Shown in pieces: positions 35,676 to 54,562 of a DNA stretch of 64,000 nucleotides. Origin of the DNA: an uncultured delta proteobacterium. Its GTDB lineage: Bacteria > Myxococcota_A > Polyangia > Polyangiales > Polyangiaceae. Where the stretch lies: contig CAVSWE010000003.1 of NCBI GenBank assembly GCA_963731595.1, positions 172,948 through 236,947 of the forward strand, given 5' to 3'. Under the pieces are notes generated by a model, which searched no databases, was not told the origin of the DNA, and saw nothing but the letters and a program-made list of their open reading frames with translations. The translations under genes were made by a program, and so were the position numbers. Position 1 is the stretch's first letter. Each line of letters opens with the position of its first letter.

Positions 35676-36377
35676 GTGCGACAGGCAGTGATCCTCGCGG
35701 GCGGGCTCGCGACGCGGATGCGGCCTCGGACGCTCAGCGTGCCCAAATTCCTGCTCGACGTGGCGGGTCGGCCGTTCGCGGATTGGCAGCTCGAGATGCT
35801 TGCAAACTGCAAGTACGACGACGTCGTCGTCTGCATCGCCCACCTCGGGGAGGAGGTGCGCGCCCACGTTGGCGACGGTGCGCGGTTCGGCCTGCGTGTC
35901 CGTTACGCGGAGGAGGGGCCGAAGCTGCTCGGCACGGGCGGCGCGCTCCGCGCCGCGGCGTCGCTACTCGACGAGAGCTTCCTCGTGACCTACGGCGACA
36001 GCTATTTGCCGTTCGATTACGGGGCGCCGCTGGACGAGCTGCGCGCTCACGACGACTGCGACGGCGTGATGAGCGTCTTCAAGAACGACGGCAAGTGGGA
36101 CGCCTCGAACGTGCGGACCGACGGGGTCTGGGTGCTCGCCTACGAGAAGGGTACGCACGAACGGGCGTTCGACCACATCGACTACGGCGCGATCGCCCTG
36201 CGCCGCGCGGCCGTGCTCGAGCTGCCGGAGGCGACGCCGTGCGGGCTCGACCAGCTCCAGACGAAGCTGGCCGCCGCTCGGCGCTTGCGGGCGCACGTCG
36301 CGCGTGAGAGGTTCTACGAGATCGGCTCGCCGGAAGGGCTTGCCGCGCTCGAGCTACGTTTGCAGGAAACGCGATGA
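35676..36377 (+). CDS. hddC: D-glycero-alpha-D-manno-heptose 1-phosphate guanylyltransferase (HddC-like sugar-phosphate nucleotidyltransferase).
   Basis: N-terminal AVILAGGLATRMRP...LLGTGGAL NTP-transferase signature. About 230 aa. First gene of a four-gene string with overlapping stops and starts. Confidence 0.8.
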   Translation: MRQAVILAGGLATRMRPRTLSVPKFLLDVAGRPFADWQLEMLANCKYDDVVVCIAHLGEEVRAHVGDGARFGLRVRYAEEGPKLLGTGGALRAAASLLDESFLVTYGDSYLPFDYGAPLDELRAHDDCDGVMSVFKNDGKWDASNVRTDGVWVLAYEKGTHERAFDHIDYGAIALRRAAVLELPEATPCGLDQLQTKLAAARRLRAHVARERFYEIGSPEGLAALELRLQETR

Positions 36378-37369
36378 TCGTCTCACGTGCGCCGGTGCGC
36401 TTCTCTCTCGGTGGTGGCGGCACCGATTTACCCAGCTACTCGCGGGAGCACGGCGGGTTTCTCGTCGCCGCTGCGATCGACAAGTACGTCAGCTTGTGCG
36501 TCGCCCAGCGATTCCACGAGAACTATCGCCTCGCGTACTCGAAGACCGAGCAGGTCGAGTCCGTCGACGCGATCGAGCACCGCATCTTCCGCGAGGCGAT
36601 CCGCTTCATGAAGCCGGGCCGATTCCTCGAGCTGCACAGCCTCGCGGACATACCCTCCAACACCGGGCTCGGCAGCTCCTCCAGCTTCACGGTGGCGCTC
36701 CTCAACGGCCTGCACGCGTTCAAGCGCGACTACGTGAGCGCGCGGCAGCTCGCCGACGAGGCGTGCGGCATCGAGATCGACGTGCTCAAAGAGCCGATCG
36801 GCAAGCAGGACCAGTACATCGCGGCGTTCGGCGGCATCACGGCGTTCACGTTCGAGAAGGACGGATCGGTCGGCGTCGAGCGTCTGCCGGTGAAGGAGGA
36901 GGTCATCGACGAGCTCGAGGCGCGTCTGCTCGTGTTCTACTCGGGCGTGGAGCGCGCCGCGTCGAAGGTGCTCGCCGAGCAGGCCAAGATGGTCACGACG
37001 AACAAGAACGACGCCGTCGCGAGGATGCACCGCATCAAAGAGATGGGCTACGAGACGAAGAAGCTCCTGCTCGACGGCGACCTCGATCGCTACGGCGATC
37101 TCTTGCACGAGCACTGGATGAACAAGCGCAAGCTTGCGTCGAGCATGACCGACTCGGTCATCGACGAGCACTACGAGACCGCGCGCAGAGCGGGGGCGCT
37201 CGGCGGCAAGCTGATGGGCGCTGGCGGGGGCGGCTTCTTCGTCTTCTACGTGCGGCCGACCGAACGCCGTTCGGTCTACGAGACCATGCTCGGACGCGGC
37301 TTGCGGCCCTTGCGGTTCCGCTTCGACTTCGACGGCGCGCGCATCGTCGCCAACTTCCATCGTTCCTGA
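36374..37369 (+). CDS. hddA: D-glycero-alpha-D-manno-heptose 7-phosphate kinase (HddA, GHMP kinase).
   Basis: MIVSRAPVRFSLGGGGTDLPSY N-terminus and GHMP motif PSNTGLGSSSS. The ATG overlaps the hddC stop (ATGA). Confidence 0.85.
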   Translation: MIVSRAPVRFSLGGGGTDLPSYSREHGGFLVAAAIDKYVSLCVAQRFHENYRLAYSKTEQVESVDAIEHRIFREAIRFMKPGRFLELHSLADIPSNTGLGSSSSFTVALLNGLHAFKRDYVSARQLADEACGIEIDVLKEPIGKQDQYIAAFGGITAFTFEKDGSVGVERLPVKEEVIDELEARLLVFYSGVERAASKVLAEQAKMVTTNKNDAVARMHRIKEMGYETKKLLLDGDLDRYGDLLHEHWMNKRKLASSMTDSVIDEHYETARRAGALGGKLMGAGGGGFFVFYVRPTERRSVYETMLGRGLRPLRFRFDFDGARIVANFHRS

Positions 37370-37376
37370 GGTCGCC

Positions 37377-37976
37377 ATGTCTTCGTTCACTCAAACGTTC
37401 CTCGCGGAGACGGCGCAGATCGTCTCCACCATCGACGCCGACGCGATCGAAGCCGTCGCCGACGGCCTCGCCGCGGTGCGCGCGGGCGGGGGCCGCCTCT
37501 TCATCCTCGGCGTCGGCGGCTCGGCCGGCCACGCGAGCCACGCGGTCAACGACTTCCGGAAGATCTGCGGCTTCGAGGCCTACGCCCCGACGGACAACGT
37601 GTCCGAGCTCACGGCGCGTACGAACGACGAGGGATGGGACACGACGTTCATCGAGTGGCTGAAGACCTCGCGCCTCGGGAGCGAGGACGCGCTCTTCATC
37701 TTCTCCGTCGGCGGCGGCAACAAGGAGAAGAACGTCTCGGTGAACCTCGTGCGCGCGATCGATCTCGCGAAGGAGCGCGGCGCGAAAGTGTTCGGCGTCG
37801 TCGGTCGCGACGGCGGGCACACCAAGCGCAGCGCCGACGCGTGCGTGCTCGTGCCGGTCGTCGCCGACGCGCGTATCACGCCGCACACCGAGGGGTTCGC
37901 CGCGGTCGTCTGGCACCTGCTCGTCAGTCACCCGAAGCTGCAGATCGCGGCGACCAAGTGGGAAAGCACGAAGTGA
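37377..37976 (+). CDS. gmhA: Sedoheptulose 7-phosphate isomerase (GmhA, SIS domain).
   Basis: SIS-domain motifs LFILGVGGSAGHASH and DALFIFSVGG; 199 aa. Confidence 0.9.
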   Translation: MSSFTQTFLAETAQIVSTIDADAIEAVADGLAAVRAGGGRLFILGVGGSAGHASHAVNDFRKICGFEAYAPTDNVSELTARTNDEGWDTTFIEWLKTSRLGSEDALFIFSVGGGNKEKNVSVNLVRAIDLAKERGAKVFGVVGRDGGHTKRSADACVLVPVVADARITPHTEGFAAVVWHLLVSHPKLQIAATKWESTK

Positions 37977-38575
37977 CGAAAGGGGTCATCCTCGACCGCG
38001 ACGGTACGCTCGTGGACGTCGTGCGCGACGAGGAGACCGGCGTCATCACGACGGCGTTTCATCCGTCGCAGCTTCGCCTCCTGCCGGGCGCGCTCGAAGG
38101 ACTGCAGAAGCTCCAATCCGCTGGGTTCGTGCTCGCCATCGCGAGCAATCAACCAGGGCCGGCGAAGGGCCATTTCTCTCGCGACGCCGTGACGAAGACC
38201 AACGCCGCGCTCGTCGCGATGCTCGCGCGCGAAAACGTGCAGATTGCAAAGGTCGTCGTGTGCATGCACCACCCGATCGGCGGCCCGGGCGGCGACGCGT
38301 CGCTCGTGGGGCCGTGCGCGTGCCGCAAGCCCAAGCCCGGCATGCTCCTCGAGATCGCGGAGGCTCTCGAGCTCGACCTCGAGCGTTCGTGGATCGTGGG
38401 CGACACGTCCTCGGACGTCGCGGCGGGTCGCGCCGCCGGGGTCCGCTCTGCGCTCGTGTTCGACCGGAACCGTTGCGAGCTCTGCCCGCTCCGCGGCGGC
38501 CCAGGCGTTTTGCCCGACGCGCAAGGCGCGACGGTGGCGGCGGTCGCGGACGAAATCACTCGTTTGGCGTGCTAG
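37973..38575 (+). CDS. gmhB: D-glycero-D-manno-heptose 1,7-bisphosphate phosphatase (GmhB, HAD family).
   Basis: HAD motif ILDRDGTL, GmhB zinc motif CMHHP...CACRKPKPGML, and WIVGDTSSD. The GTG overlaps the gmhA stop. Confidence 0.85.
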   Translation: MTKGVILDRDGTLVDVVRDEETGVITTAFHPSQLRLLPGALEGLQKLQSAGFVLAIASNQPGPAKGHFSRDAVTKTNAALVAMLARENVQIAKVVVCMHHPIGGPGGDASLVGPCACRKPKPGMLLEIAEALELDLERSWIVGDTSSDVAAGRAAGVRSALVFDRNRCELCPLRGGPGVLPDAQGATVAAVADEITRLAC

Positions 38576-38586: not shown

Positions 38587-40767
38587 ATGAGCGGAAAACG
38601 CCGCGTCGAGCGCGTGGCCGATGCCCTCGCGTTTGCGGCGACGGCCTGGTTCGCGTTCACGGCATTTTGGGGAATCAACGCTCAACCCCATGCGGGCCAC
38701 ATCGGCTCCGCGGGCGCCGCGATCGCCATGACCGCGGAGAATTCGATCCGCTGGCACTCGTGGTATCCGCTCTCCGATTATTACGGCACGACCAACCCGT
38801 TTCCTCAGGGTGCGTACTGCCATCACCCGTTCGGCTGTTTCTGGATCAGTGAGATCGCGGTTCGGCTCTTCGGCCACGCCGACTTCGTCGCGAATCTTCC
38901 GTCCGCGATCATGAGCGCGCTCACGCCGCCGCTGCTTTATTGGACCGGCAAGCGCGCGTGGGGCCCGCTCCCCGGCGCCGCCGCGGCGATCGCGTTCGTG
39001 ACGCTGCCCATCACCGTGGGTTTTTCGATCTTCCACAACCTGGAAGTGATGACGATCTTCGGCGCCGTCCTGTTCTTCTGGGGCCACGGCAAGTTCCTCG
39101 AGACGCGGCGCGGGCGCGATCTCGCGTGGTCCCTCGTCGGCGCCTCGATTGCCGTGTCCGGCGACTGGGTCGGGTACGTCATCCTGGCCGGCCTCCTCGG
39201 CTGGGCTTTCCTTCGAGCGTTCGTCCTGCCGGCGTGGATGACGCCGCCTGTTCGCGTGGCGCAGTACCACCGCTGGTGGGCGCTCTCGGTCGCGCTCGCG
39301 GTGGGCTCGCTCGTGCTCTGGATCGCGATGTTCCAGCACGCCGACAAGCTCACCGACTGGATTGCCTCGGCGCAGGGCAGAAGCGGCGGCGCGGACGAGA
39401 AGCTCTCGGCCGTGTTGGAGGCGCGAAAGACCTGGATCGATTTCTCCTTCACGCCGTACGCGATCCTCGTCGGCAAGCTCGCCGCGCCGCTCGCCATCGT
39501 CCGTCTCGTCTACTTTCGCCGCGACGCCGAGATGTACTCGGTGGCGATGCTGTTCGGCGCGACGGTGCAGTATCTCGTCTTCAAGCAGGGCGCGGACATT
39601 CACATTTTCTGGCCGCACTATTTCGGCGCTTATTACGCGTACGCGTGCGCGCAGCTCGTTGCCACGGCCGGTGGGGTGACGCGCTGGGCCGCCCGGCGCT
39701 TCGCGCCGAATGCGGTTCGAAGCCCTGAGGTCGCCGTCTCGCTCTGCGCGCTCTTCCTCGCGACCGCGCCGCAGACACCCGACGCCGTCCGATCCCTGCG
39801 CGTGTGGCGCGAGTCGGCCGGGAGGTACGACGAGAAGGGTGTGCTCTATCGTAGCCACGCCGACCTCCTCTTCGTCGTGAAGAAGGTGCTCCGGCCCGAG
39901 ATCCATCGAGGCGAAAAGCTCGGCGTCGAGCCCGGAGTCAGCTGGGGCTGGGAGCACCAATGGGCGCTCGAAGGCATGGCCGAGACGGCGTCGTCGCCGT
40001 CGAACGCCCATCCCTATTGGCTCGCGCGCGCCAGCGCGTTGGGCGCCGATCAGCTCAAGACGTTGGCGCAGAAATACCATCTTCGCATCTACGGCGACGC
40101 GGTGATCGTGAAGCGCGGAGAACGTCAAGCGCCGGTCGACGCGTACGCGATCGAGGAGCGCGAGCCCGGCTGGATCGGCTGGATGTTCACGTACAACACC
40201 GAGCCGGTTCGCACGATTTCGGAGCAGCCCGACCCATTCGAGACGTGGGAGTGGCGGTATCATCTCGGCCAGCCGGCGGAGCGGCCGACGCAGAAGCCTC
40301 ACACGCTCGAACAGATCCGCATCGGTTACAACGCCGCGGTCGCGAGTCACGACGACCCCGCCGCTGCCAAGCTCCTCGAGGCCCTCCGCGACGGCATCGA
40401 TCGCACTGTCGAGGCTCATTTCGACGAGGGCAACGAGCTGATGGGCGTCCGCTTGGTGCACGGCGTCCGCCCGCGGATCGAGGTTTATTTTCAGGCGGGC
40501 GGCCCCACGGCCTCCGACACCAAGCTCACGATTCGCTCGGACGTCGTAGCCAAAGCCAAGCTCAGCCTGATTCCCCCGAGCCCGGTCGAGTGCGATCTCG
40601 CGTATCCACCCTCGCTGTCGACCAAGCTCTGGCAGCGTGGTTTCGTGTACAAGTTCGTAGCGCCGCTCCACCACCGCATCGGAGAGGAGCGGTATTGGGC
40701 TGCATGGGCCGGCGGACCACGTCGTCTGCACGGAGACCCGAAGATCGATTTGGCTTACGTGGAATGA
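38587..40767 (+). CDS. Large polytopic membrane protein with a C-terminal ~350 aa soluble domain (GT-C-like architecture; putative lipid-linked-sugar glycosyltransferase).
   Basis: About 11 N-terminal TM helices, with acidic/aromatic residues in the first loop, then a hydrophilic domain (726 aa). No exact family assignable by eye. Confidence 0.6.
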   Translation: MSGKRRVERVADALAFAATAWFAFTAFWGINAQPHAGHIGSAGAAIAMTAENSIRWHSWYPLSDYYGTTNPFPQGAYCHHPFGCFWISEIAVRLFGHADFVANLPSAIMSALTPPLLYWTGKRAWGPLPGAAAAIAFVTLPITVGFSIFHNLEVMTIFGAVLFFWGHGKFLETRRGRDLAWSLVGASIAVSGDWVGYVILAGLLGWAFLRAFVLPAWMTPPVRVAQYHRWWALSVALAVGSLVLWIAMFQHADKLTDWIASAQGRSGGADEKLSAVLEARKTWIDFSFTPYAILVGKLAAPLAIVRLVYFRRDAEMYSVAMLFGATVQYLVFKQGADIHIFWPHYFGAYYAYACAQLVATAGGVTRWAARRFAPNAVRSPEVAVSLCALFLATAPQTPDAVRSLRVWRESAGRYDEKGVLYRSHADLLFVVKKVLRPEIHRGEKLGVEPGVSWGWEHQWALEGMAETASSPSNAHPYWLARASALGADQLKTLAQKYHLRIYGDAVIVKRGERQAPVDAYAIEEREPGWIGWMFTYNTEPVRTISEQPDPFETWEWRYHLGQPAERPTQKPHTLEQIRIGYNAAVASHDDPAAAKLLEALRDGIDRTVEAHFDEGNELMGVRLVHGVRPRIEVYFQAGGPTASDTKLTIRSDVVAKAKLSLIPPSPVECDLAYPPSLSTKLWQRGFVYKFVAPLHHRIGEERYWAAWAGGPRRLHGDPKIDLAYVE

Positions 40768-41416: not shown

Positions 41417-42550
41417 ATGGAGCGGCCGATGAACGCCTTGACACGCTTGTTGCGCGCGTCGTGGGGACGGCCACGGCACGTGCTCGGCATCGGAAACCTC
41501 GACTGGTCCCAGCTCGACGGCGTCACGGCCGTCGACGACGAGAAGCTCGCCGCGACGAAGGGGAACTTCGACGCTGCGGTCGTCGAGCTGCCTGCGTCCG
41601 ACGAGGGCGCGCTCGAGCGACTGCGCGCGTGCGTCGGCCGTCTCTCGGACGGAGGACACGTGCTTCTTCCGGTCGCGCACCCGGTGTCATTCGCCGAAGG
41701 ACAACGCTTGCGCCGCGCCTTCGACCGCGCGCGCGAGCGAACGGTTCGCCTCGCCGAGGCCGCGGGCCTCGAGGTCTTGCGCGTCGACGTGCGATTGCAC
41801 GCCGCGGTCGTCGTCGCCCGCACCGCGCCGAAGCCCGGCAAGCTCTCGCTCACCGTCGGCATGCTCACGTTGAACGAGCAGCAAAGCGTCGAGCGGATGA
41901 TGGACGAGATCCATCAATACGCGCCCGACGCGAGCATCCTGCTCGTGGACAGCTCGAGCGACGAGACGCCGAACCTCGCGCGCGCCAAAGGCGCCGAGGT
42001 GATTCGGCAACTGCCGGCGCGCGGCCACGGTCCGGCGATGGAGCAGCTCATGTACGCGGCCGCCGATCGCAGCGACGCGCTCGTCTACATCGACTGCGAC
42101 TTCACCTACCCGACCGAATACATCCCGCGCATCCGCGAGCTCCTCGAGCAAGGCGCCGACGTCGTCAACGCGACGCGCACGCACAAATACCCGAAGGCGA
42201 TGCCCGTGCCGAACTTCATCGCGAACCGCGTGTTCGCCGCGACGGCTCAGATCGTCCACGGGATCCCAACGACCGACTTGCACAGCGGCCTGCGCGGGTA
42301 TCGCTCCTCGGTGATCAGAGCGTTTTCGTTCAGCGGGGAACAGGACGCGCTGCCGGTGACGACCTTGATCCTGCCGGCGCGTTCGAGCTACCGCGTCGTC
42401 GACCTTCCCATCCCCTACGCCGAGCGGGAGGGCATCTCCAAGCTGGCGAAGTTTCGGGGCACCGCGTGGACGTTCGCGCGCGTCGCAACGAGCCTCGGTC
42501 ACGGCCGGCGCGTGCGCCGCGGGCGCAACTACTCACACGTTGGACGCTGA
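41417..42550 (+). CDS. GT2-family glycosyltransferase (DPM1/polyprenol-phosphate sugar synthase-like) with a ~130 aa N-terminal extension.
   Basis: LTVGMLTLNEQQSV...ILLVDSSSDETPNLA...DCDFTYP (GT2 DxD region). Confidence 0.75.
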   Translation: MERPMNALTRLLRASWGRPRHVLGIGNLDWSQLDGVTAVDDEKLAATKGNFDAAVVELPASDEGALERLRACVGRLSDGGHVLLPVAHPVSFAEGQRLRRAFDRARERTVRLAEAAGLEVLRVDVRLHAAVVVARTAPKPGKLSLTVGMLTLNEQQSVERMMDEIHQYAPDASILLVDSSSDETPNLARAKGAEVIRQLPARGHGPAMEQLMYAAADRSDALVYIDCDFTYPTEYIPRIRELLEQGADVVNATRTHKYPKAMPVPNFIANRVFAATAQIVHGIPTTDLHSGLRGYRSSVIRAFSFSGEQDALPVTTLILPARSSYRVVDLPIPYAEREGISKLAKFRGTAWTFARVATSLGHGRRVRRGRNYSHVGR

Positions 42551-43489
42551 CCCGAAGATCTCGCCGGCGATTTCACGCACCGCGCGCTCGACGGCTTGAT
42601 CGGAGGTGTTGTGCATCCGAAAGCCGAGGGCCGCCAGCTTGTCGGGTCGCAGTCGCGAGCGGGCGACGTCGCCCGGCCACCCCTGGGCGCTCGTGCCGAA
42701 GGCGATGCGGGCGCCCGGGTTGGGCGAGCTGGCGACGCACAGCTCGGCGATGCGACGCACGGAGGTCGTGTCCGGCGGCGCGAGGTTGTAGATCGCGGGG
42801 TTCTCGCCGCTCGCGTGGTCGAGGACGAAGAGGATCGCCTCGGTGCAGTCGCTGACGTGGAGGTACGGCTTGCTCTGCCGGCCGTCGCCGAGGACGTCGA
42901 GGCAATCGGGCTTCTGCTGGAGCTTCTTGCAGAAGTCGACGATCGCGCCGTGCGTTCCCCGCGCACCCACCACGTTTCCGAATCGGCAGATGTAAGATCC
43001 GAGGCCGAAGCACTCCGAATAGGCCGCGATGAGCGCCTCGCCCGCGAACTTGCTCGCCCCGTAGAGCGAGATCGGCAAATGTCCGAGATCGGCCTCGCCG
43101 CACGGCTGATCGGTGTTGCCGTACACGGTTCCGCTCGAGGAGAAGACGAACTTGCCGACGTGCGTGAGCCGCGCAGCCTCGAGCGAGTTGTACGTCGCGA
43201 TGGTGCCTTGCTCGAGGTCGAGGCGCGTTCGCTCGAGCCCCCAGCGGGCCTCGGGGTTCGCCGCGAGGTGAAATACGACGTCATGGCCGGCCATCGCCGC
43301 CTGGAGCGCGTCGAGCTCGAGCGCGTCGCCGACGACCAACTTGGCCGCGCCGCTCGCGAGGTGTGCCGCTACGAATTCCCTCTTGCCGATCGACAGATTG
43401 TCGAAGATCGTCACCGGGCCGCGGGCGACGAGCCGGTCGACCAAGTGGCTTCCGATGAACCCTGCACCGCCGACGACGAACGACCGCAT
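42533..43489 (-). CDS. NAD-dependent epimerase/dehydratase (extended SDR; nucleotide-sugar epimerase-like).
   Basis: MRSFVVGGAGFIGSHLV Rossmann motif and catalytic YGASK (YxxxK). Confidence 0.8.
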   Translation of the reverse strand: MRSFVVGGAGFIGSHLVDRLVARGPVTIFDNLSIGKREFVAAHLASGAAKLVVGDALELDALQAAMAGHDVVFHLAANPEARWGLERTRLDLEQGTIATYNSLEAARLTHVGKFVFSSSGTVYGNTDQPCGEADLGHLPISLYGASKFAGEALIAAYSECFGLGSYICRFGNVVGARGTHGAIVDFCKKLQQKPDCLDVLGDGRQSKPYLHVSDCTEAILFVLDHASGENPAIYNLAPPDTTSVRRIAELCVASSPNPGARIAFGTSAQGWPGDVARSRLRPDKLAALGFRMHNTSDQAVERAVREIAGEIFGSASNV

Positions 43490-44366
43490 GGATGAGGGAG
43501 CGGAACATAGTGCGAAACCGGGCGCCTTGCGAGCGTTCGTCGCCGGCCTCCGTGAGGTCATGTTGCTGCGTGGGGCGCACGCCGTCGTCGCGGGGTACGG
43601 CCCCGCGACGCTGGCCGCGATCCGCGAGCACAAACGTGCCGCCTCCGCGCGACTGCGCGCGTCGCGCCGACTCTCGAACCCTCGCCTCGCCGTCGAGCTG
43701 CTCGCCGCGGCGCGCACGCACGCGGTGCTCGCGGCGGCCGCGGCAGGGCGCGCGGCGCCGCCGCCGATGGACGCCGTCGGTCTCGACGCGCTGCCCTTCG
43801 CCGATCTCGAGACCCTGCGCGATCGACTCGAGCTCGAGATCGGCGAGATCCTGGCTTCGATCGAGTCGCGCACGCCGACGGAGCTCCGTGGCCTCGTCTA
43901 CGGCCGGTTCGCGGCGATCGCCCTGGCCGTCTGCGCGGCCCTCTGGGCCGAGAGCAAGCCGTACCGAATCCACGACGTCGCGCTCGGCAAGCCGGTGACC
44001 ACGAGCCCGCTGCTCGCTCCTCCGGCGACGCCCGAGGGGATCGTGGACGGCCGCACGCGCGGCACGTTCGGGCTGCAGACGACCCGAGGGCGCGCGCCTT
44101 TCGTGACCATCGACCTCGAGCGCACGTACCTGATTCGTCGCATCGCGATCTACAACCGCGCCGACGGCTGGTACGACGAGATCCTGCCGCTGTCCCTCGA
44201 GGTCTCCGCCGACGGCATCACCTTCGAGCACGTCGCGACGCGGACCGAGCACTTCACCGTGTGGGACTTGCGCTTCGACGCCGGGCTCAACGCGCGCTGG
44301 GTCCGCGTCTCCAAGGACAACGGCTACATCGCCCTGAACGAAATCGAAGTCTATGCCCGCAACTGA
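43488..44366 (+). CDS. Type II membrane-anchored F5/8 type C (discoidin/CBM32-like) domain protein.
   Basis: About 150 aa cytoplasmic N-region, TM RFAAIALAVCAALWA, and a C-terminal discoidin signature ...FVTIDLERTYLIRRIAIYNRADGWYD...SADGITFEHV...WVRVSKDNGYIALNEIEVYA. The ATG forms a CATG overlap with the divergent epimerase start, so the start is uncertain. Confidence 0.65.
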   Translation: MDEGAEHSAKPGALRAFVAGLREVMLLRGAHAVVAGYGPATLAAIREHKRAASARLRASRRLSNPRLAVELLAAARTHAVLAAAAAGRAAPPPMDAVGLDALPFADLETLRDRLELEIGEILASIESRTPTELRGLVYGRFAAIALAVCAALWAESKPYRIHDVALGKPVTTSPLLAPPATPEGIVDGRTRGTFGLQTTRGRAPFVTIDLERTYLIRRIAIYNRADGWYDEILPLSLEVSADGITFEHVATRTEHFTVWDLRFDAGLNARWVRVSKDNGYIALNEIEVYARN

Positions 44367-46194
44367 CGCTCCCAAGCGCGACTGGTCGCGAATCGGCCGT
44401 ATCGCGCTCGAAGTGTTCACCTGGCTCCTCGCGCTCGGGATGCTGGCGCTCGTCGTCGCGCCCGTCTTCATCCACACCGACACGTACGGAGTCCACGACT
44501 GGGACCAGATGGAAGCGCACCGCTACCTCGCGGTGAAGACCATCAAGCGCTACCACCAGTTCCCGTTCTGGAACCCGTATAGCTGCGGCGGCCACACGTG
44601 GTGGGGCGGGCTCGAGAGCGGCACGTCGCTCGTGTCTCCTTGGCTGCCGATCTACCTGCTCGCGCCGTTCACCTGGGCGCTGCGGCTCGAGATCGTCGGC
44701 GCGGCGCTCTTGTCGGTGGTCGGTACGTGGCTCTTCGCCGGTCGCTTCACGCGGAGCCCCGGGCTGCGCCTGCTCGCGATTGCGGCGTTCGCGCTCGACG
44801 GCCGATTCACGCTCCAAACCTCGGTCGGCCACACGTGGCACCTCTATTACGCTTGGACGCCATGGGCGCTCTACTTCCTCGACCGCGCGATCGCGATCGC
44901 GCCCGGCGCGTCGCGCAAGACCGCTTTTCGCGACGTCGTGTTCCTCGGCGCGACGCTCGCGATGATGGTCTACACGGGCGGCATCTACCCGCTGCCCCAG
45001 ACGATCGTCATGATCGCGATCTATTCGATCACGTGCGCCGTCGTGACTCGCTCGACCCGGCCGGTGACGCTGGCGGTCGCCGGCGGGCTCTTGTCGTTCG
45101 CCTTCTCGGCGCCGCGGCTCCTGCCGATCATCGAGATGCTCCGGCACTACCCGCGCCTCGTCGACTCTCCCGAGTCGATGGATCTCGGCGCGCTCATCGG
45201 GGTCTTCACGGCGAAGGAGAGCGAGCCTCGCCCCTCGCTCGGCCCGTGGGGCTGGCACGAGTTCGGGATCTACGTCGGGTGGGTGCCGTTCGCGATGATG
45301 CTGTTCGCGCTCGCGGTCGGCGGCCGCGCGCGGGAGCGCGCGCTGCGTCTCGCAGGCGCCTTCGCGCTCGTCTGCGGGCTCGGGCGCTTCCACAAGTACT
45401 CGCCGTGGGGGCTCATGCATGACCACCTGCCGATCTTCGAGTCGCAGCACGTGCCCTCGCGCTGGCTCTACCCCGCCGCGCTGATGCTCGTCGTCGCGGC
45501 CGTCGCGGTCGTGGAGCGCTGGCTCGCGCACCGGAGGCGGCGAGGCTTGCTCGAGGTCGCGGTGATGTCACTCGCCGCGTACGTCGCGCTCGACGTGGGC
45601 CTCGAGGCGCAGCGGCCGCTGGTCGGCGCGTTCGCCTACCATTTGCGCCCGCTCGTCGACAGCGTCGGCGAATTTCATCAAGAGCGCACGGCGCCGCCCG
45701 AGCTTCGTTACGACGGCTCCGATTGGGCACCCCCGAACATGCCGTCGATGATCGCGAACGTCGGCGTGCTCGCGTGCGGCACCTTTCCCGGCTTCGACTC
45801 CTATTACCGCGACGCTCACGACCACTCGCCGGGCATGGGGGCAAAGGCCCGTGGAGACGCTGACTATCGCGGCGAGGTCTACTTCCCGTCGGGTCACGGC
45901 CGAGCTTCGATCACGTCGTGGTCTCCGAACGCGGTCACCGTCTCGTACAGCGACGCGCAGCCCGGCGATCTGCTCGTCTTGAACGAGAACTGGGACTCCG
46001 GCTGGCATGCGAGCGGAGGCCGCGTCGAGGCGCACGCCGACGCGATCGGCGTACGCGTCGGCGCGAGCGAAGGCGTCGTCCGCTTCCGCTATACGCCGCC
46101 TTTCTTCTGGCTCGGCTGTTGGATCTTCGCCTCGACGGTCGCGGGCCTGGTGCTCTTGAAACGGCGAAACGTGGTAAAACGAGCGGAAACTTAG
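44353..46194 (+). CDS. Polytopic membrane protein (613 aa), GT-C-like; overlaps the stop of the upstream discoidin gene.
   Basis: At least 11 TM helices, a first loop HTDTYGVHDWDQMEAHRY rich in acidic residues, and a C-terminal ~180 aa soluble domain. Confidence 0.6.
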   Translation: MPATDAPKRDWSRIGRIALEVFTWLLALGMLALVVAPVFIHTDTYGVHDWDQMEAHRYLAVKTIKRYHQFPFWNPYSCGGHTWWGGLESGTSLVSPWLPIYLLAPFTWALRLEIVGAALLSVVGTWLFAGRFTRSPGLRLLAIAAFALDGRFTLQTSVGHTWHLYYAWTPWALYFLDRAIAIAPGASRKTAFRDVVFLGATLAMMVYTGGIYPLPQTIVMIAIYSITCAVVTRSTRPVTLAVAGGLLSFAFSAPRLLPIIEMLRHYPRLVDSPESMDLGALIGVFTAKESEPRPSLGPWGWHEFGIYVGWVPFAMMLFALAVGGRARERALRLAGAFALVCGLGRFHKYSPWGLMHDHLPIFESQHVPSRWLYPAALMLVVAAVAVVERWLAHRRRRGLLEVAVMSLAAYVALDVGLEAQRPLVGAFAYHLRPLVDSVGEFHQERTAPPELRYDGSDWAPPNMPSMIANVGVLACGTFPGFDSYYRDAHDHSPGMGAKARGDADYRGEVYFPSGHGRASITSWSPNAVTVSYSDAQPGDLLVLNENWDSGWHASGGRVEAHADAIGVRVGASEGVVRFRYTPPFFWLGCWIFASTVAGLVLLKRRNVVKRAET

Positions 46195-46208
46195 GAGGGA
46201 ACTCCCCA

Positions 46209-46865
46209 ATGGCGATCTTCATCGACAGCTCCGACCCGAAGGAAATCAAAGACCTCTTCGCGTGGGGCGTGCTCTCCGGCGTCACGACGAACCCCCTCAT
46301 CATCTCGAAGGAGAGGCCCGACGCGGACCTCGGCGAGATTGTCCGCGAGATCCTCGCGGTGAGCTGGGGCGACGTTTCGGTCGAGCTCACGACCGAGACC
46401 GAAAGCGAGATGCTCGCGGAAGCGTCCGGGTATCACGCGTGGGATCCGCAGCGCATCACCATCAAGGTGCCGATGAGCGAGGCGGGCCTTCGCGTGCTCC
46501 ACCAGCTCTCGAAGAAGGGCGTGAAGACGAACGTCACGTGCCTCATGTCGATGAACCAGGCTTATCTAGCTGCGCTCGCAGGCGCGACCTACGTCAGCAT
46601 CTTCTCCGGTCGCGTCCGCGACATGGGCTACGACGTGAAGCCGATCATCGCCGCGACCCGCAACGTGCTCGACCGCGAGAATCTGCCGTCGAAGATCATC
46701 GTCGGCTCGATGCGTCACATGATGGACGTGAACGAGGCGCTCGAAGCCGGCGCTCACGTGCCCACGATCACGCCGACCATCTTGCGCAAGATGGTCTGGA
46801 ATCCGCGGACGATCGAGACCATCAACGAGTTCAACACCGCGTGGAGAAACCGCGGCAAAAAGTAG
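46209..46865 (+). CDS. Transaldolase/fructose-6-phosphate aldolase family protein (TalC/FSA-like, 218 aa).
   Basis: GVTTNPLII motif and a KVP Schiff-base lysine region. A strong GGAGGG RBS sits 8-9 nt upstream. Confidence 0.85.
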   Translation: MAIFIDSSDPKEIKDLFAWGVLSGVTTNPLIISKERPDADLGEIVREILAVSWGDVSVELTTETESEMLAEASGYHAWDPQRITIKVPMSEAGLRVLHQLSKKGVKTNVTCLMSMNQAYLAALAGATYVSIFSGRVRDMGYDVKPIIAATRNVLDRENLPSKIIVGSMRHMMDVNEALEAGAHVPTITPTILRKMVWNPRTIETINEFNTAWRNRGKK

Positions 46866-46880: not shown

Positions 46881-47867
46881 ATGTCCAAGCGCGCGCTGAT
46901 CACCGGAATCACGGGTCAAGATGGCTCGTACCTCGCCGAGCTACTGCTCGAGAAAGGCTACGAGGTGCACGGCCTCGTGCGTCGTTCCAGCTCGCTCAAC
47001 CGAAGCCGCATCGACCACATCTTCAACGCCGATCTCTCGCACCGGCGACACTTGCACTATGGCGATCTCACCGACGGCTCCTCCGTAAACCGCTTGCTCC
47101 GCGCGATCCGGCCGGACGAGATCTACAACCTCGGCGCGCAGAGCCACGTCAAGGTGAGCTTCGAGATCCCCGAGTACACCGCCGAGACGGCCGGGCTCGG
47201 CGCGCTTCGTTTCCTCGAGGGCATTCGCGAGACGGATCTCGTCACGCGATTTTACCAGGCGGGCTCGTCCGAGATGTTCGGCTCCGCGGCGGCGCCGCAG
47301 TCCGAGCTCACGCCGTTCCACCCGCGATCGCCCTACGCCGCAGCGAAGGTGTACGCGCACACGATCGCGGTGAACTACCGCGAAGCGTACGGGATGTTCG
47401 TCTGCAACGGCATCCTCTTCAACCACGAGTCCCCGCGGCGCGGGGAGAACTTCGTGACGCGCAAGATCACGCGCGGCGTCGCGGCGATCAAGCTCGGCCA
47501 GCAGAAGCAGCTCGCGCTCGGCAACCTCGACGCGCAGCGCGATTGGGGCTACGCGAAGGACTACGTCGTCGCGATGTGGCAGATGCTCCAGTGCGACCAG
47601 CCCGACGACTACGTCGTCGCTACGGGCGAGACCCACACCGTCCGCGAGTTCTGCGAGGTTGCGTTCGCTCACGCCGGGCTCGACTACCGCAAGCACGTCG
47701 TCATCGACCCGAGCTACTTCCGCCCGACCGAGGTGGACGTGCTGCAGGGCGACGCCCGCAAAGCTCACGCCGCGTTCGGGTGGAAGCCCACCGTGAAGTT
47801 CGAGGAGCTCGCGAAGCTCATGGTCGACGCCGACCTCGACGCTCTCCGCAGCGGGCACGCCCAATGA
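46881..47867 (+). CDS. gmd: GDP-mannose 4,6-dehydratase family (Gmd/DmhA-like).
   Basis: [36 protein letters not shown] catalytic motif, 328 aa. Confidence 0.9.
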
Positions 47868-49105
47868 GCTACCGCGGGATCGCGGAGTGCCGCATCTGCG
47901 GCGGCTCGAACCTCGTCACGGTCCTCGATCTCGGCCAGCAAGCGCTGACGGGCGTCTTCCCGGACGCGAAGAACCCCGAGGTCGAAGTCGCGCCGCTCGA
48001 CCTCGTGAAATGCGACGGGCCTGGCTCGTGCGGGCTCGTGCAGCTGCGGCACACGTGCGAGCCGTCGCAAATGTATGGAGCGAACTACGGCTACCGCTCG
48101 GGGCTCAATCTCTCCATGGTCGAGCACTTGCGCGCCAAGGTCGCGCGCCTCGTCGAGCTCGCGCCGCTGGCCCCTGGCGACGTCGTGCTCGACATCGGCA
48201 GCAACGACGGGACGACGCTCTCGTCGTATCCGAGCACGGCGAAGCTCGTCGGCATCGACCCCACGGCGGCGAAATTCCGCCAGTATTACCCCGAGCACGT
48301 CACCGTCGTGCCGGACTTCTTCTCGTCCGCTCGCTTCCTCGATGCGAGCGGCGGCGCGCGCGCGAAGATCGTCACGTCGATCGCGATGTTCTACGACCTC
48401 GAGCGCCCGATGGACTTCATGCGCGACGTGTTTGCCTCGCTCGCCGACGACGGCGTCTGGCACTTCGAGCAGAGCTATCTCCCGTCGATGCTCGACGCGC
48501 TCTCGTACGACACGATCTGCCACGAGCACCTCGAGTACTACGCGCTCGCGCAGATCCAGTGGATGGCCGAGCGCGTCGGTTTTCGGATCGTCGACGTCGA
48601 GCTCAACGACGTCAACGGCGGCTCGTTCGCGATCACCGCGCGGAAAGGTCGCAACGGCGCCGCTTCGCCGCGCGTCGCGGAGCTCGCGGCCGCGGAGAGG
48701 ATGCGCGCGCTCGACACCCTCGCGCCCTACGAGAAATTCGCGTCCGACGTCGCGCACCACCGCGACGAGCTGCGCGCCCTCCTCGGGCGTCTGCGCGACG
48801 ACGGCAAGCGCGTCTTCGGCCTCGGCGCGTCGACGAAGGGCAACGTCCTCTTGCAGTATTGCGGCTTCGGCGTGCGCGAGCTCGCATGCATCGCCGAGGT
48901 CAACCCCGACAAGTTCGGCCACGTCACCCCCGGCACGAACATCCCGATCGTATCCGAGGCGGACGCGCTCGCGCGCGCCCCGGATTATTTCATGGCGCTC
49001 CCGTGGCATTTTCGGAGCACGCTGCTCCGCGCGCACGCGAGCTTCCTCGAGCGCGGCGGCAAGATGATCTTTCCGTTGCCGCGTCTCGAGATCGTCGGGG
49101 CATGA
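47864..49105 (+). CDS. Sugar C-methyltransferase (TylCIII/NovU-like: zinc ribbon, SAM methyltransferase domain, C-methyltransferase C-terminal domain).
   Basis: N-terminal CRICGG...C...C zinc-binding region. [10 protein letters not shown] (motif I). A C-terminal domain typical of NDP-hexose 3-C-methyltransferases. ATGA overlaps at both ends. Confidence 0.8.
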
Positions 49106-49993
49106 AGCGAGCGGCCGTCATCGGCTGCGCGGGGCAAGACGGACGCCTCCTCCGCGAGCGCCTCTCGAAGGAAGCGGAGGTCGTCGGCGTGGATCTCGGC
49201 GACGTCGACCTCGCGGAATCCGGCGGCGACGACCGCGTGGATCGAGCGCATCGCGCCGGACGAGCTCTACTACCTGGCCGCGCACCATCACTCGGCCGAG
49301 GCTCTTCCGGACGACGCGAGCGAGCTCCGCGCGTGCACCGCCGTACACGTGACGTCCTGGGTGAACGTGCTCGACGCGCTCCGGCGGCACGCGCCCGCGT
49401 GCCGCGCGTTCTACGCCGGCTCGTCGCACATGTTCGGCCGTCCCGCGGTTTCGCCTCAAAACGAGACGACGCCGTTCGCACCACGAAGCCCGTACGCGAT
49501 CACGAAGGTCGCGGGCGCGCACGTCGCCGCGCTCTACCGTGACCGCGGGATGCACGTTTCGGTCGGCATCCTCTACAATCACGAGTCGGCGCTTCGCGGC
49601 CCGCAGTTCGTCTCGCAACGAATCGTCCGCGGTGCGAAGCGCGCGGCAAACGATCGCACCTTCGAGCTCGTGCTCGGCGACCTGTCCGCCGTAGTCGACT
49701 GGGGCTGGGCGCCCGACTATGTCGACGCGATGGTTCGCATTCTCGCGCAGCCGGCTCCGGACGATTACGTCGTCGCCACCGGGACGCCGCACTCCGTCCA
49801 GGACTTCGTGGCGAGCGCGTTCGCCTGCGCGGGCGTCGACTGGCGTTCGCGGGTGGTGGAGGATCCGACCATCGTCAAGACGAAGGCGCTCCCACTCGTC
49901 GGCGACTCGACGAAGCTCCGCGCACGTACCGCCTGGGCGCCTACGGTGACGTTCGAGGAAATGGTGAAGCAGCTCGTGCAAGGTGGGCAGTGA
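49105..49993 (+). CDS. GDP-4-keto-6-deoxy-sugar reductase/dehydratase family (Rmd/DmhB-like), with an apparent +1 frame shift near 49235.
   Basis: N-terminal [17 protein letters not shown] in frame 1. The rest is in frame 2 (...PDELYYLAAHHHSAE...SPYAITKVAG...). Confidence 0.75.
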
Positions 49994-50964
49994 CGTGAAC
50001 CTCGATCGGGTGGCGAGCGTGGCGACCGAGTGGCTCCTCCAGAAGGACGCGGAGACACGTGCGAGGGCGCGCGAGAGCAATCCGGAGCACGCGCGCTTGG
50101 TCCAGCTATGTCTCCGTGGCGCTGACGAACGACTCGACCTCCTCGGCGACGTCACGGAGCCCGTAGTCGCGCTCGCGTCATCCGCCGCGTTGCGCGAGGC
50201 GACGCTGCTGCTGCTCGAAGCGACGGGTTCGCGGAGCGGGCCGCTCGACGCCGTCGCAGAGCTCCGTCGCACCTGCGAAGAGCTCGCCGTTCCCGCGGGG
50301 ACATGCAGCGCAGCAGCGCGCTTGCTCGTCGACGACCCGCTCGCGCTCTCGGGTCTGGCGTCAGCGGATTTCGGTCCGTTCTGCGCTCGCCCTCGAGCAC
50401 GTCGCACGCGCGCTCCGCGCGCACCTCGACGGCCGAACCGCGTCGCGCATCGTGCGTTCGCGGCGCTTGCGCGTGGCGCTCCTCGCGGCGCTGGCCCTGT
50501 ACGGCGTCTTCGCGCTCGGGCTCGCCGTGTTCGGGCGCAAGAACATCGCACGCGGCAAGCCCGTCCTCATGAGCAGCGTCGACGGGGCCAGTGCCCCACC
50601 GCAGATGCTCGTCGACGGCGTTCGGTCCGCCGACACCAAGCCGGGCTCCCCGAAGCCGGACGTCGTCTACACGCGCCACGAGGCGCATCCCTGGGCGCTC
50701 GTCGATCTCGGGCGCGAATACAACATCCGGGAGGTGCGCCTGTACAATCGCGACGACGGAGGCTTCGACGACGGCCTCCCGTACATCGTCGAGTTCTCGT
50801 TCGACGGCCACACGTTCTGGGAAGTCGGCCGCTGCGAGACGCACTTCGGGAGTTGGTGGATCGACCCGCCCTGCCGTGTGCCGTGCGACCGGCGCACCAC
50901 GCGCTTCGTCCGCGTCAGCGCGACGGGTTACCTCGCGCTCAGCGAGATCGAGGTGTTCCCTTGA
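49983..50964 (+). CDS. Second membrane-anchored F5/8 type C (discoidin) domain protein, paralog of 43488..44366, with an apparent +1 frame shift near 50395.
   Basis: GTG start overlapping the upstream stop. N-terminal ~135 aa in frame 0. TM LRVALLAALALYGVFALGLAVFG plus discoidin ...WALVDLGREYNIREVRLYNRDDGG...FSFDGHTFWEV...RFVRVSATGYLALSEIEVFP in frame 1. Confidence 0.55.
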
Positions 50965-52715
50965 ACCGCCTCCGGCTCGCCGAGTGGCAGCGTCCTTTGC
51001 TCGCCATCTTTCTGACGCTGCTCACGCTGCGCATCACGGCCTATTTCTTCGCGATCCTGAACGACAACTTTCTCCACGCCGGCCTCGAGTACGACGAGAG
51101 CTATTTCGTGTGGTGCGGGTGGATGATCAACAAGGGCTTCGCGCCGTACCGCGACTTCCTCGAATTCAAGCCGCCGATGACGTTCATCACGCACGCCATG
51201 GCGCTGAAGCTCTTCGGGTTTCATGAGTTCGGCTACCGGAAGTTCTTCGCCTATTTTCCGCTGGGGTCCCTCCTCGCGCTGCAGCTCGCGATGTTGTCGC
51301 GCCGAATCGACCGGTGGCTCGCGCTCGCCCTCACGATCGCGTTCATCCAGATCTGGCTGAACCCCACCTTTCACGACGTGGCGCTCTCGGACTCGGAGTC
51401 GATCGGGCTCGCGTACTACCTGCTCGGGGTCGCCTGCCTGTTCGCGCGCACGCGCTTTCGAACGACGCTCCAGTGGTTGGGTGGGGCGATGTTCGCCTGC
51501 TCGATCTTTTCGAAGGAGCCGTTCTTGCCGTGCGTGGGCATGACGTGGATCAGCCTTTTCCTGCTGGGGGACGAGCCCGGGACGTTCGCCGTGCGTGCGC
51601 GCCGCTACGCGGGCCGGACGATCGGCGGCGGGCTCGTCGTGCTCGCCCTGCTGTGCGCTTACATGATCCCGAGCGGCGCGATGCGCGCGTACCTCGACGT
51701 CCTGCACCGGTACTTCCACTTCTACCGCGACGTGAAGGAGTCGTATTGCGTCGTCCTCGGGCGCTTTCATCCGACGGTGCCGTTGAACGACCTCCACATG
51801 CAGTGGCGGCAGGCGCGCGCCTCGTTCGCGAACTCGACGAACCTCGGCTTCCTCGCGCCGTTCGCCGCAGCCTCGATCGTGTTCATCTGGAAGCGCTCGC
51901 GCGTCCTGTTCGCGACCGTGCTCATCGGCGTAGGTTCGGCGCTCTGGGCCGTGACGGCGAGCAACTGCCAGTGGGCGCACTACTACACGATGACGATGAG
52001 CGGTCTCTTCTTCGCGCTCGTCGTGGGCCTCGATTCGCTCACGCCGCATTTCCGCGCGATGAGCCGCGCGTCGCGGGTGTTTCTCTCGATCGCCATGCTC
52101 GGCACCGTGCTCCTGCACGACTGGGTTCGCTTCGACGCCGAACGCGACAAGTACGGCACGCGGACGGCGCAGGAGTTCAAATCGAAGGAGCCCGTCCCCG
52201 GCGTGTTCGAGGCCGTGCAGCGGTACACGACGCCGGCGGAACGCATCGTCACGACCGGTGCGCCGAGCCTGTACATGCAAGTCGATCGGATCGACGGCAT
52301 GCGCGAATCCACCACCGACGACGAGGTGCTCGGCTTCTACAGTGGCGCCACGGACGAGGAAAAGCTCAGCAGCGTTAGAGCCGAGCTACTTCGTAGCCGC
52401 CCCAAGCTGATCATCCTCGACTCGTCGCCTTCCGGCGACGGGCGCAAGCGCCGCTGGCGCGCCGCGCTGTGGGACCCCTTCTTGCACGACTTCCATTATC
52501 GCGAGATCAAACCTCGCATTTACGTCCGACCGGATCTGATCAGTCCGGTCGGCGCGCGACGACGACGGCCTGCACGAAGAAATCCTTCGGCCCGAAGTCG
52601 TACGAGACGAGCTCGAGGCCGCCCGAGGCGAGGAGCTTCGAAGCCTCGCTCTTGGAGTGCACCAGCGACGGCTCCGGCGGGTGCAGTCGGACGTTCTTCG
52701 CGAGCACGTCGTTGA
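50961..52715 (+). CDS. GT-C-fold glycosyltransferase (ArnT/PMT-like, GT39/GT83 family); 3' end uncertain.
   Basis: TTG start overlapping the discoidin stop. First periplasmic loop LEYDESYFVWCGWMINKGFAPYRDFLEFKPPMTFI (DE motif and EFKPP, as in ArnT/PMT). More than 10 TM helices. The last ~60 aa are Arg-rich, so the true stop may lie nearer 52530. Confidence 0.7.
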   Translation: MNRLRLAEWQRPLLAIFLTLLTLRITAYFFAILNDNFLHAGLEYDESYFVWCGWMINKGFAPYRDFLEFKPPMTFITHAMALKLFGFHEFGYRKFFAYFPLGSLLALQLAMLSRRIDRWLALALTIAFIQIWLNPTFHDVALSDSESIGLAYYLLGVACLFARTRFRTTLQWLGGAMFACSIFSKEPFLPCVGMTWISLFLLGDEPGTFAVRARRYAGRTIGGGLVVLALLCAYMIPSGAMRAYLDVLHRYFHFYRDVKESYCVVLGRFHPTVPLNDLHMQWRQARASFANSTNLGFLAPFAAASIVFIWKRSRVLFATVLIGVGSALWAVTASNCQWAHYYTMTMSGLFFALVVGLDSLTPHFRAMSRASRVFLSIAMLGTVLLHDWVRFDAERDKYGTRTAQEFKSKEPVPGVFEAVQRYTTPAERIVTTGAPSLYMQVDRIDGMRESTTDDEVLGFYSGATDEEKLSSVRAELLRSRPKLIILDSSPSGDGRKRRWRAALWDPFLHDFHYREIKPRIYVRPDLISPVGARRRRPARRNPSARSRTRRARGRPRRGASKPRSWSAPATAPAGAVGRSSRARR

Positions 52716-54031: not shown

Positions 54032-54562
54032 TCAGCAAAAGACGTGGATCGTCACCGTGAAATCGCCGCTGTTGTCCCCGAAGGCCTGCCTCTGATCGTT
54101 GAATCCAAGGAAGAGGCGGCCGCTCGTCGACGCAATCTCGTCGTACGACGTCCCCACGAAGCCTGGACCGTCGCCGCTCGTGCCCTCGGCGACCGGAACG
54201 CCCGTGTCGAGGGCTGCCGTGCCGCCGACCTTGCCGATGAGGCTGACGATGACGGCGTCGGGCAGCACCGCCGTCGGGAAGAATCGTTGGCCGTCGAAAT
54301 TGCCCCCGTTCGCGTCGCAGGACTGACTGCCCATGTCGCCGTAACGCACCGTACCGGACGCCGCGAGGACGAGCCGCTCTCCCGCGACCACGTCGAGGCC
54401 GGTGTCGACCCAGGGCGCCTCCGACGACACTTGCAGCGTGATCTCGCGCGTCTCGCACGCGCCGTCGGCGCCAGCCTCCGACGACAGGCGACCGCCGAGC
54501 TCGGTTCGGGCGCCGCACGCCGACGCAGCGGCGAAGAACGCGATGGTCAGTGCGCGCAGCAT
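54032..54562 (-). CDS. Small secreted lipoprotein (176 aa), hypothetical.
   Basis: MLRALTIAFFAAASACGARTEL signal/lipobox; Gly/Asp-rich beta-type composition. Confidence 0.55.
   Translation of the reverse strand: MLRALTIAFFAAASACGARTELGGRLSSEAGADGACETREITLQVSSEAPWVDTGLDVVAGERLVLAASGTVRYGDMGSQSCDANGGNFDGQRFFPTAVLPDAVIVSLIGKVGGTAALDTGVPVAEGTSGDGPGFVGTSYDEIASTSGRLFLGFNDQRQAFGDNSGDFTVTIHVFC

Follow-up and report, generated by a model that had tools for sequence, protein, structure and literature searches.

In the pathway to GDP-heptose, a SIS-domain isomerase, an anomeric GHMP kinase, a HAD phosphatase and a nucleotidyltransferase act together to turn a ketose with a terminal phosphate into a nucleoside diphosphate (NDP)-aldose. 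Sedoheptulose 7-phosphate (S7P) is a universal intermediate of the pentose-phosphate pathway and is made mainly by transketolase. A similar gene set that includes a transaldolase is described for the lincosamide antibiotics, where LmbR makes octulose 8-phosphate from ribose 5-phosphate and either fructose 6-phosphate (F6P) or S7P, LmbN isomerises it, LmbP, LmbK and LmbO carry it on to GDP-octose, and LmbM, LmbL and LmbZ (epimerase, dehydrogenase and oxidoreductase) then modify GDP-octose (PMC5854111, PMC4351081, PMC12945683). The celesticetin homologues CcbR, CcbN, CcbP, CcbO and CcbK have 222, 202, 323, 232 and 185 residues, respectively, and the first non-lincosamide TBLASTN matches of CcbN (C8 isomerase) and CcbP (C8 kinase) are from Sorangium cellulosum, a member of the Polyangiaceae (S1 Document of PMC4351081). 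Here we analyse a 64,000-nucleotide stretch of DNA from an uncultured Polyangiaceae bacterium (contig CAVSWE010000003.1; the window), in which a small transaldolase gene, tal, is encoded together with four genes of the heptose type. We conclude that tal is probably dedicated to this hddC/hddA/gmhA/gmhB-like module, in which it would catalyse the committed step rather than top up S7P, and we assign a rough probability of 0.5 to the proposal that the step is LmbR-like, giving octulose 8-phosphate and thence an NDP-octose.

The tal gene extends from 46209 to 46865 on the plus strand, from ATG to TAG, and encodes a 218-residue protein. Its third-position GC content (0.85–0.90) is the same as that of the neighbouring genes in a window of about 69% GC, and it is part of a tightly packed same-strand run in which gmd starts 15 nt past the tal stop. 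More than 120 protein clusters are 84–100% identical to its product, which marks tal as a conserved gene under selection rather than an open reading frame (ORF) that arose by chance. The protein matches the Pfam family TAL_FSA (PF00923) over residues 3–206 with E = 7e-36 (124.5 bits, with a cut-off of 27), and the initial annotation was correct in describing a small gene of TalC/FSA size with a strong ribosome-binding site. Its best solved relatives are the small transaldolases of Bacillus subtilis, Thermoplasma acidophilum, Thermus thermophilus and Thermotoga maritima (E = 1e-34 to 1e-38), and in the PDB comparison the transaldolases score 136 bits compared with about 54 bits for Escherichia coli fructose-6-phosphate aldolase (FSA). 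An AlphaFold model generated from a 59-sequence alignment has a mean pLDDT of 96.9 and alternating strand-helix units forming an alpha/beta barrel, and Foldseek superimposes it on solved small transaldolases with TM scores of 0.93–0.95 (0.95 for the T. acidophilum enzyme) at 36–38% identity.

We aligned 47 distinct sequences of the tal clade with B. subtilis Tal, T. acidophilum Tal and E. coli FSA, and found Asp6, Asn28, Glu59, Lys86, Asn108, Thr110, Phe132, Arg135, Ser167 and Arg169 to be invariant in the clade. Lys86 is the Schiff-base lysine, and Glu59 with Phe132 is the transaldolase signature, in place of which E. coli FSA has Gln59 and Tyr131 in the same alignment. By these residues the protein is therefore a transaldolase and not an F6P aldolase; an FSA identity is ruled out, and the earlier description of a TalC/FSA-type aldolase holds for family and size but not for the active site. 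Sequence and model together confirm that the gene is real, with its predicted catalytic residues and transaldolase fold intact. It is nonetheless not a standard TalC, as it scores 158.3 bits against the NCBIfam equivalog TIGR00875 (fsa_talC_mipB), below the cut-off of 245.95, and the clade carries invariant changes relative to the classical small transaldolases (Ser/Thr30 to Leu, Leu111 to Cys, Phe113 to Met, Pro131 to Ile, Asp137 to Arg and Ala166 to Gly). In a library of 1.8 billion proteins, the closest 150 representatives at 50% identity include a broad 'type B' group, which these six changes define and set apart from the canonical 'type A' pattern.

The genomic company of tal was determined by searching 51 species-level loci from GTDB genomes, 41 of which have enough upstream sequence, with the window proteins. 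Close homologues (70–95% identity) are found only in metagenome-assembled genomes (MAGs) of uncultured Polyangiaceae and Polyangiales. The usual order is a contiguous hddC-hddA-gmhA-gmhB-tal, followed by a short-chain dehydrogenase/reductase (SDR) epimerase gene. In 27 of the 41 loci gmhB is directly upstream of tal on the same strand, which bears out the earlier view that tal belongs with the sugar cluster and is not there by chance; all four partners lie within 3.3 kb upstream of tal in 23/41, so that the LmbR-type architecture seen in the window, with its 218-residue transaldolase and all four partners, recurs as a contiguous operon. At least one of the four is in the tal flanks at 40 of 51 loci, an HddC-like gene is upstream of tal at 31 of the 51, and SDR homologues adjoin tal in 35 loci. 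The last is also true of a typical locus, L017, which has in addition a convergent Gfo/Idh/MocA oxidoreductase gene and a methyltransferase-GT2 gene. Among the module proteins the transaldolase is the most conserved, with a median identity of 84% compared with 62–74% for its partners.

Placement directly upstream of a dehydratase operon was also thought meaningful, and tal does precede gmd closely, although the conserved partner is hddC-hddA-gmhA-gmhB. Just 2–4 loci have gmd, the C-methyltransferase gene or the reductase gene close to tal (gmd in 4/54, mostly at 25–29% identity), and a functional coupling of tal to gmd and the C-methyltransferase gene is rejected on account of this rare co-occurrence. 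Because the gmd operon is seldom near tal elsewhere, we interpret the adjacency, which the window shares with the syntenic locus L005, as a local rearrangement. Similarly, the idea that tal sits inside a heptose cluster stands insofar as four heptose-type genes are present in the window, but all four score below their NCBIfam equivalog cut-offs (Table 1), whereas gmd passes its own; the GmhB-like protein is also below a second equivalog (63 bits, cut-off 250).

Several loci have features of their own. One MAG (MFD01872.bin.2.281) encodes the same 218-residue transaldolase on two contigs (L006 and L007) in different glycan-gene contexts, one beside genes for a PA-IL-like protein and a beta-CASP protein and the other after UDPG_MGDP_dh, Gfo/Idh/MocA and epimerase genes; this may reflect a true duplication or strain mixing. 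On three long-read MAG contigs (L052, L053 and L055) tal is split over two or three frames, probably through sequencing frameshifts rather than decay. No Sorangium protein was present among the matches of the divergent L051 transaldolase or of the window isomerase, which were all uncultured Polyangiaceae-type proteins.

The isomerase encoded by the module differs from canonical GmhA in ways that accompany the transaldolase, and we refer to the transaldolase-linked SIS subgroup as GmhA-B. Its members, including archaeal and phage-like ones, are 45–57% identical to the window protein. Compared with Burkholderia pseudomallei GmhA they have an HAVNDFRK motif, a longer phosphate loop (SVGGGxxEKNxS) and a five-residue insertion before TPHTE...H; in the window the phosphate loop reads SVGGGNKEKNVS where canonical GmhA has S[ST]SGxS. 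The canonical loop, together with a compact C-terminal catalytic segment, is seen in B. pseudomallei GmhA, in Caulobacter phage Cr30 and in the faecal phage contig L146, and the heptose modules of Cr30, L146 and a further faecal phage contig, L147, all have canonical loops and no transaldolase.

Scanning IMG/VR with a GmhA-B alignment gave 276 viral contigs, of which the best 80 were taken, 64 of them with at least 2.6 kb downstream of the isomerase gene. All 64 have a TAL_FSA ORF, which begins at a median distance of 511 bp past the isomerase gene, whereas a control scan for canonical GmhA found one in 0/80 viral loci (0/32 among those of at least 11 kb). Transaldolase is thus dispensable in every canonical GmhA module examined. 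For metagenomes, we used Joint Genome Institute (JGI) contigs with 3.5 kb or more on each side and a GC content of 0.37–0.72, and among the GmhA-B matches listed a transaldolase lies within 6 kb in 15 of 19 loci. This near-obligate coupling to an altered isomerase is better explained by a ketose phosphate that lies outside central metabolism than by S7P. These comparisons support one element of the initial annotation, that tal would feed the step catalysed by the GmhA-like isomerase.

Many of the viral loci (L148–L227; for example L222, 6001–9812, and L169, 6004–9856), on contigs of uncultured T4-like phages, carry the genes in the order SIS (GmhA-B), HAD, TAL_FSA, GT1 and GHMP kinase beside a T4-type RNase H gene, and this T4-like cassette usually has no nucleotidyltransferase. 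No GmhA-B was found in the cultured phages of INPHARED.

Not all GmhA-B proteins are paired with the same transaldolase. In most modules outside the Polyangiaceae the enzyme is about 240 residues long, 25–31% identical to that of the window and 39–49% identical to the phage cassette enzyme, and it scores 257–263 bits against TIGR02134 ('Staph-type'; cut-off 282). The catalytic Asp, Glu, Lys, Phe and Arg are preserved in these Staph-type enzymes, which also share the Pro131 to Ile change ('SIF.GR'), and the GmhA-B proteins that adjoin them (L308–L387 and L148–L227 compared) remain 62–74% identical to the window isomerase. The pattern suggests that one transaldolase lineage has replaced another at the same operon slot after gmhB, and the occupation of one slot by two lineages indicates that it is the activity as such that the pathway needs.

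More distant type B transaldolases, at 42–58% identity, also keep SIS, HAD, GHMP-kinase and NTP-transferase neighbours. Metagenome contigs L057–L059 have the order Gfo/Idh/MocA, SIS, HAD, TAL and radical SAM; L060 has PMT_2 and B12-radical SAM genes followed by NTP-transferase, GHMP kinase, SIS, HAD and TAL; in L061 TAL is followed by NTP-transferase, GHMP kinase and SIS; and a phage-like contig (L064) has NTP-transferase, GHMP kinase, SIS and TAL. A block of SDR epimerase, SIS, TAL and GHMP kinase genes is present in Candidatus Micrarchaeota, of the DPANN archaea (L062, 6474–9622; GCA_028866775.1); the archaeal and myxobacterial isomerases share 53% identity, which implies that the module has moved between domains. 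When 30 representative transaldolases were looked up in protein clusters, the members returned were metagenomic and MAG ones only, with no named Streptomyces member among them.

A fused methyltransferase-GT2 gene recurs near tal, at 8619–10678 in L056, at 5614–8672 in L063, in Polyangiaceae loci and at 52540–54009 (minus strand) in the window. L056 and L063 are phage-like contigs with a GH25 lysozyme gene and many small unknown ORFs, in which the transaldolase gene follows the fusion. This recurrence hints at a second functional link besides that to the heptose-like genes.

We propose that tal encodes the first and committed enzyme of a five-gene sugar-activation module and would act as a Schiff-base (class I) transaldolase, followed by the GmhA-B isomerase, the GHMP anomeric kinase, the HAD phosphatase and the nucleotidyltransferase in that order. 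The transaldolase would take the dihydroxyacetone unit from F6P (or S7P) and join it to an aldose phosphate, presumably giving a ketose phosphate not available from central metabolism. By analogy with LmbR and LmbN the acceptor would be ribose 5-phosphate and the product octulose 8-phosphate, which the remaining enzymes would turn into an NDP-activated octose, probably GDP-octose. Installing the octose on a surface glycan and decorating it could then fall to the cluster's GT2, GT-C and methyltransferase genes.

In the initial annotation tal was instead a locus-encoded source of S7P. The enzyme would then combine F6P with erythrose 4-phosphate to furnish the GmhA-like isomerase with S7P of its own, and GDP-heptose would be the product of the module. 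This is consistent with the fully conserved transaldolase-type active site, with the closest solved structures being genuine S7P-forming transaldolases, with the best family matches of the partners, which are GDP-D-glycero-D-manno-heptose enzymes, and with tal adjoining gmhA/gmhB as genes for consecutive steps would; carriers with small genomes, such as the phage-like contigs and the Micrarchaeota archaeon, might also lack a dependable S7P pool, and phage-encoded TalC is a familiar precedent for manipulation of flux. However, S7P is available to all cells, chiefly through transketolase, an additional equilibrium enzyme would not increase the amount of S7P where the cell already possesses a transaldolase, and the characterised GDP- and ADP-heptose operons are generally known to do without one. 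The difference between the two classes of viral loci, the altered substrate loops of GmhA-B and the large shortfall of all four partners against the heptose equivalogs point the same way, and we consider an S7P supply doubtful and not the best fit to the data. Nor could we confirm the precedent originally drawn from septacidin- and hygromycin-type pathways: the word 'transaldolase' is absent from the septacidin heptose paper (PMC9978623), and the documented precedent is LmbR. A quite different possibility is that tal is the housekeeping transaldolase of the pentose-phosphate pathway and is inside a glycan cluster by chance, as might be thought from its very high conservation over so many clusters and from finding no second TAL_FSA ORF in the window or in any flank (up to 10 kb). 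We regard this as highly improbable, given that dozens of species keep tal in its operon position after gmhB, that one MAG has two copies, each in a glycan locus, that phage-like contigs and an archaeon have relatives in the same module, and that the TalC equivalog score is low and otherwise invariant positions are substituted.

The comparative evidence for a non-central ketose phosphate applies equally if the acceptor or donor is a different one, such that the product is the phosphate of an unusual heptulose, of a different octulose (with arabinose 5-phosphate as a conceivable acceptor) or of a nonulose, leading to a higher-carbon sugar other than the lincosamide octose and D-glycero-D-manno-heptose. 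The clade-invariant substitutions at positions 30, 111, 113, 131, 137 and 166, which are otherwise conserved, and the varied tailoring genes of related loci (B12-radical SAM, Gfo/Idh/MocA, SDR and methyltransferase) are in keeping with this, but it lacks a biochemical precedent in such a gene context, and LmbR, the only characterised transaldolase in a comparable module, uses ribose 5-phosphate; we think it distinctly unlikely. The LmbR-like, octulose-forming step that we favour also has observations that weigh against it. To our knowledge, no octose has been reported in any myxobacterial glycan. The residues that bind F6P, S7P and erythrose 4-phosphate in classical transaldolases are all kept, and S7P formation is fully possible, and the best NCBIfam matches of the partners, sub-threshold as they are, are still heptose enzymes. 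The other four of the 19 metagenomic GmhA-B loci have no transaldolase within 6 kb, and the window would itself be an exception with such a flank, as tal is 8.2 kb from gmhA; the 64 viral loci probably represent few independent lineages, with many sharing one T4-like cassette. Finally, the likeness to the octose enzymes is one of analogy, resting on architecture, protein sizes and the BLAST matches in a 2015 supplement.

Table 1. Positions of the module genes and other features near tal in the 64,000-nucleotide window.
Feature	Coordinates	Strand	Evidence or remark
HddC-like sugar-1-phosphate nucleotidyltransferase (module step 5)	35676..36377	+	Pfam NTP_transferase 1.4e-16; NCBIfam HddC 56 bits, cut-off 300
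HddA-like GHMP anomeric kinase (module step 3)	36374..37369	+	Pfam GHMP_kinases_N/C; NCBIfam HddA 166, cut-off 600; PHROG 34407 221 bits
GmhA-B, non-canonical SIS-domain ketose/aldose phosphate isomerase (module step 2)	37377..37976	+	SIS_2 4.8e-10; TIGR00441 52, cut-off 209
GmhB-like HAD-IIIA sugar bisphosphate phosphatase (module step 4)	37973..38575	+	Pfam HAD; NF006506 118, cut-off 178
SDR sugar-nucleotide epimerase/dehydratase-family gene	42533..43491	-	Pfam Epimerase 2e-41; ATG at 43489-43491
613-residue protein, no Pfam family	44353..46194	+	Directly upstream of tal
Shine-Dalgarno-like AGGAGGG	46193..46199	+	9 nt before tal ATG; overlaps TAG stop (46192-46194) of the 613-residue protein gene
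tal, small class-I transaldolase, 218 residues, TalC-like lineage, 'type B' variant	46209..46865	+	Pfam, residues, model
GDP-mannose 4,6-dehydratase (gmd)	46881..47867	+	TIGR01472 510 bits, cut-off 415
NDP-sugar C-methyltransferase with N-terminal zinc-binding domain	47864..49105	+	Methyltransf_14 1.3e-47; Methyltransf_13 1.7e-16
GDP-4-keto-6-deoxy-sugar reductase-like SDR, frameshifted	49102..49993	+	Pfam GDP_Man_Dehyd 5.9e-59, without N-terminus

By Pfam and NCBIfam matches, the sugar and glycan genes along the same-strand run between about 33.3 and 52.4 kb include a PMT_2-type GT-C, a methyltransferase, a GT2 and an F5/8-type-C protein. The protein encoded immediately upstream of tal may be a GT-C-type membrane glycosyltransferase, judging from a 39%-identical homologue that adjoins tal in locus L001 and shows a faint YfhO match. 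The gmd, C-methyltransferase and reductase genes look like a separate, ordinary GDP-mannose-derived branch for a 6-deoxy, C-methyl sugar, and would yield a GDP-6-deoxy-C-methyl-hexose; a similar trio is present on the viral contig L139. The N-terminus of the reductase is encoded from an ATG at 49102, overlapping the C-methyltransferase stop, and the other approximately 260 residues are in a frame opening at 49106. The gene is a single intact ORF in L005, and the frameshift is either that of a pseudogene or an assembly error.

The cluster further encodes large membrane proteins (one a PMT_2 member; one without a Pfam family and with the faintly YfhO-like homologue), two F5/8-type-C (discoidin) proteins and a PA-IL-like lectin, and this set occupies 38572–40767, 43341–44366, 44353–46194, 50167–50964 and 54032–54562. 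Together these suggest extracytoplasmic glycosylation from a lipid-linked sugar, and secreted carbohydrate-binding proteins. A plus-strand ORF at 50961–52715, with no Pfam match, overlaps the 3' end of the convergent methyltransferase-GT2 gene by about 175 nt, and its plus-frame codon signal fades near 52400. At 5161–8585 there are four long overlapping ORFs on both strands with high third-position GC and a second-position GC of about 0.68, suggesting a low-complexity or repeat-rich (Gly/Ala/Pro-type) coding region of ambiguous frame.

If the transaldolase is the committed step, the gene set is a distinct pathway and not a heptose pathway with a helper enzyme, and its only characterised relative would be the one that makes the octose of lincomycin. 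We tentatively propose, a little short of even confidence, that the pairing of transaldolase with GmhA-B constitutes a widespread and undescribed route to nucleotide-activated eight-carbon or higher-carbon sugars, both for surface glycans of Myxococcota, other bacteria and DPANN archaea and in T4-like phage cassettes. Octose biosynthesis, described until now only for lincosamides, would then extend to the surface glycans of soil Myxococcota, of other bacteria and of DPANN archaea. A GmhA-B relative is encoded in at least 576 JGI metagenome stretches (among the 600 matches listed) and tal in 51 Polyangiaceae species-level genomes, and, if the proposal is true, the product would therefore be a common though unrecognised constituent of cell surfaces in the environment, or of the glycan modification that phages direct. 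The sugar-nucleotide module, of the lincosamide type and dependent on a transaldolase, is widespread outside antibiotic clusters and apparently undescribed, and term searches of open-access text for a transaldolase with gmhA/hddA, for a transaldolase with GHMP kinase and nucleotidyltransferase, and for phosphoheptose isomerase with phage returned no relevant report. As a rule for annotation, a GmhA-like gene that has HAVNDFRK and SVGGG and lies beside a transaldolase gene should not be named as a sedoheptulose-7-phosphate isomerase without evidence.

Among described systems, E. coli FSA (of the FSA/MipB/TalC group) has in common with tal the Pfam family, size and Schiff-base lysine. The classical small (type 3B, TalC-like) transaldolases, B. 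subtilis Tal (3R8R), T. acidophilum Tal (3S0C) and T. maritima TM0295 (1VPX), are similar in fold and length and share with tal the Asp/Glu/Lys/Phe catalytic set and the Arg/Ser/Arg phosphate site, but tal is only 36–38% identical to them and is encoded in a sugar-nucleotide operon rather than with pentose-phosphate genes. The TalC auxiliary metabolic gene of cyanophages likewise encodes a small phage-borne TAL_FSA protein, and PHROG 440 ('transaldolase') is matched at 1.9e-52. Most TAL_FSA genes on viral contigs (GC about 0.40, 33–35% identical to tal and probably of the TalC type) have no heptose-like genes in their flanks, whereas the module-linked phage transaldolases are in a SIS-HAD-TAL-GT1-kinase cassette. 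The pathway to GDP-D-glycero-alpha-D-manno-heptose, known from capsule, S-layer and O-antigen loci, uses the same four enzyme families, and its logic, from ketose phosphate to aldose phosphate, 1,omega-bisphosphate, 1-phosphate and NDP-sugar, is probably common to both; here, however, the transaldolase is integral, the partners are below the family cut-offs and the isomerase loops differ. The GDP-octose pathway of lincomycin and celesticetin in Streptomyces has the same gene set of transaldolase, GmhA-like isomerase, GHMP kinase, HAD phosphatase and nucleotidyltransferase, with products of similar size (CcbR, CcbN, CcbP and CcbO at 222, 202, 323 and 232 residues, compared with 218, 199, 331 and 233 here), and likewise has an SDR epimerase and Gfo/Idh/MocA oxidoreductases nearby. 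Unlike its lincosamide counterpart, the module described here has no carrier-protein fusion on the isomerase and no aminotransferase or mycothiol-related genes detected with it, and it resides not in an antibiotic cluster but in a glycosyltransferase/surface-glycan cluster of Myxococcota, in phage-like contigs and in an archaeon.

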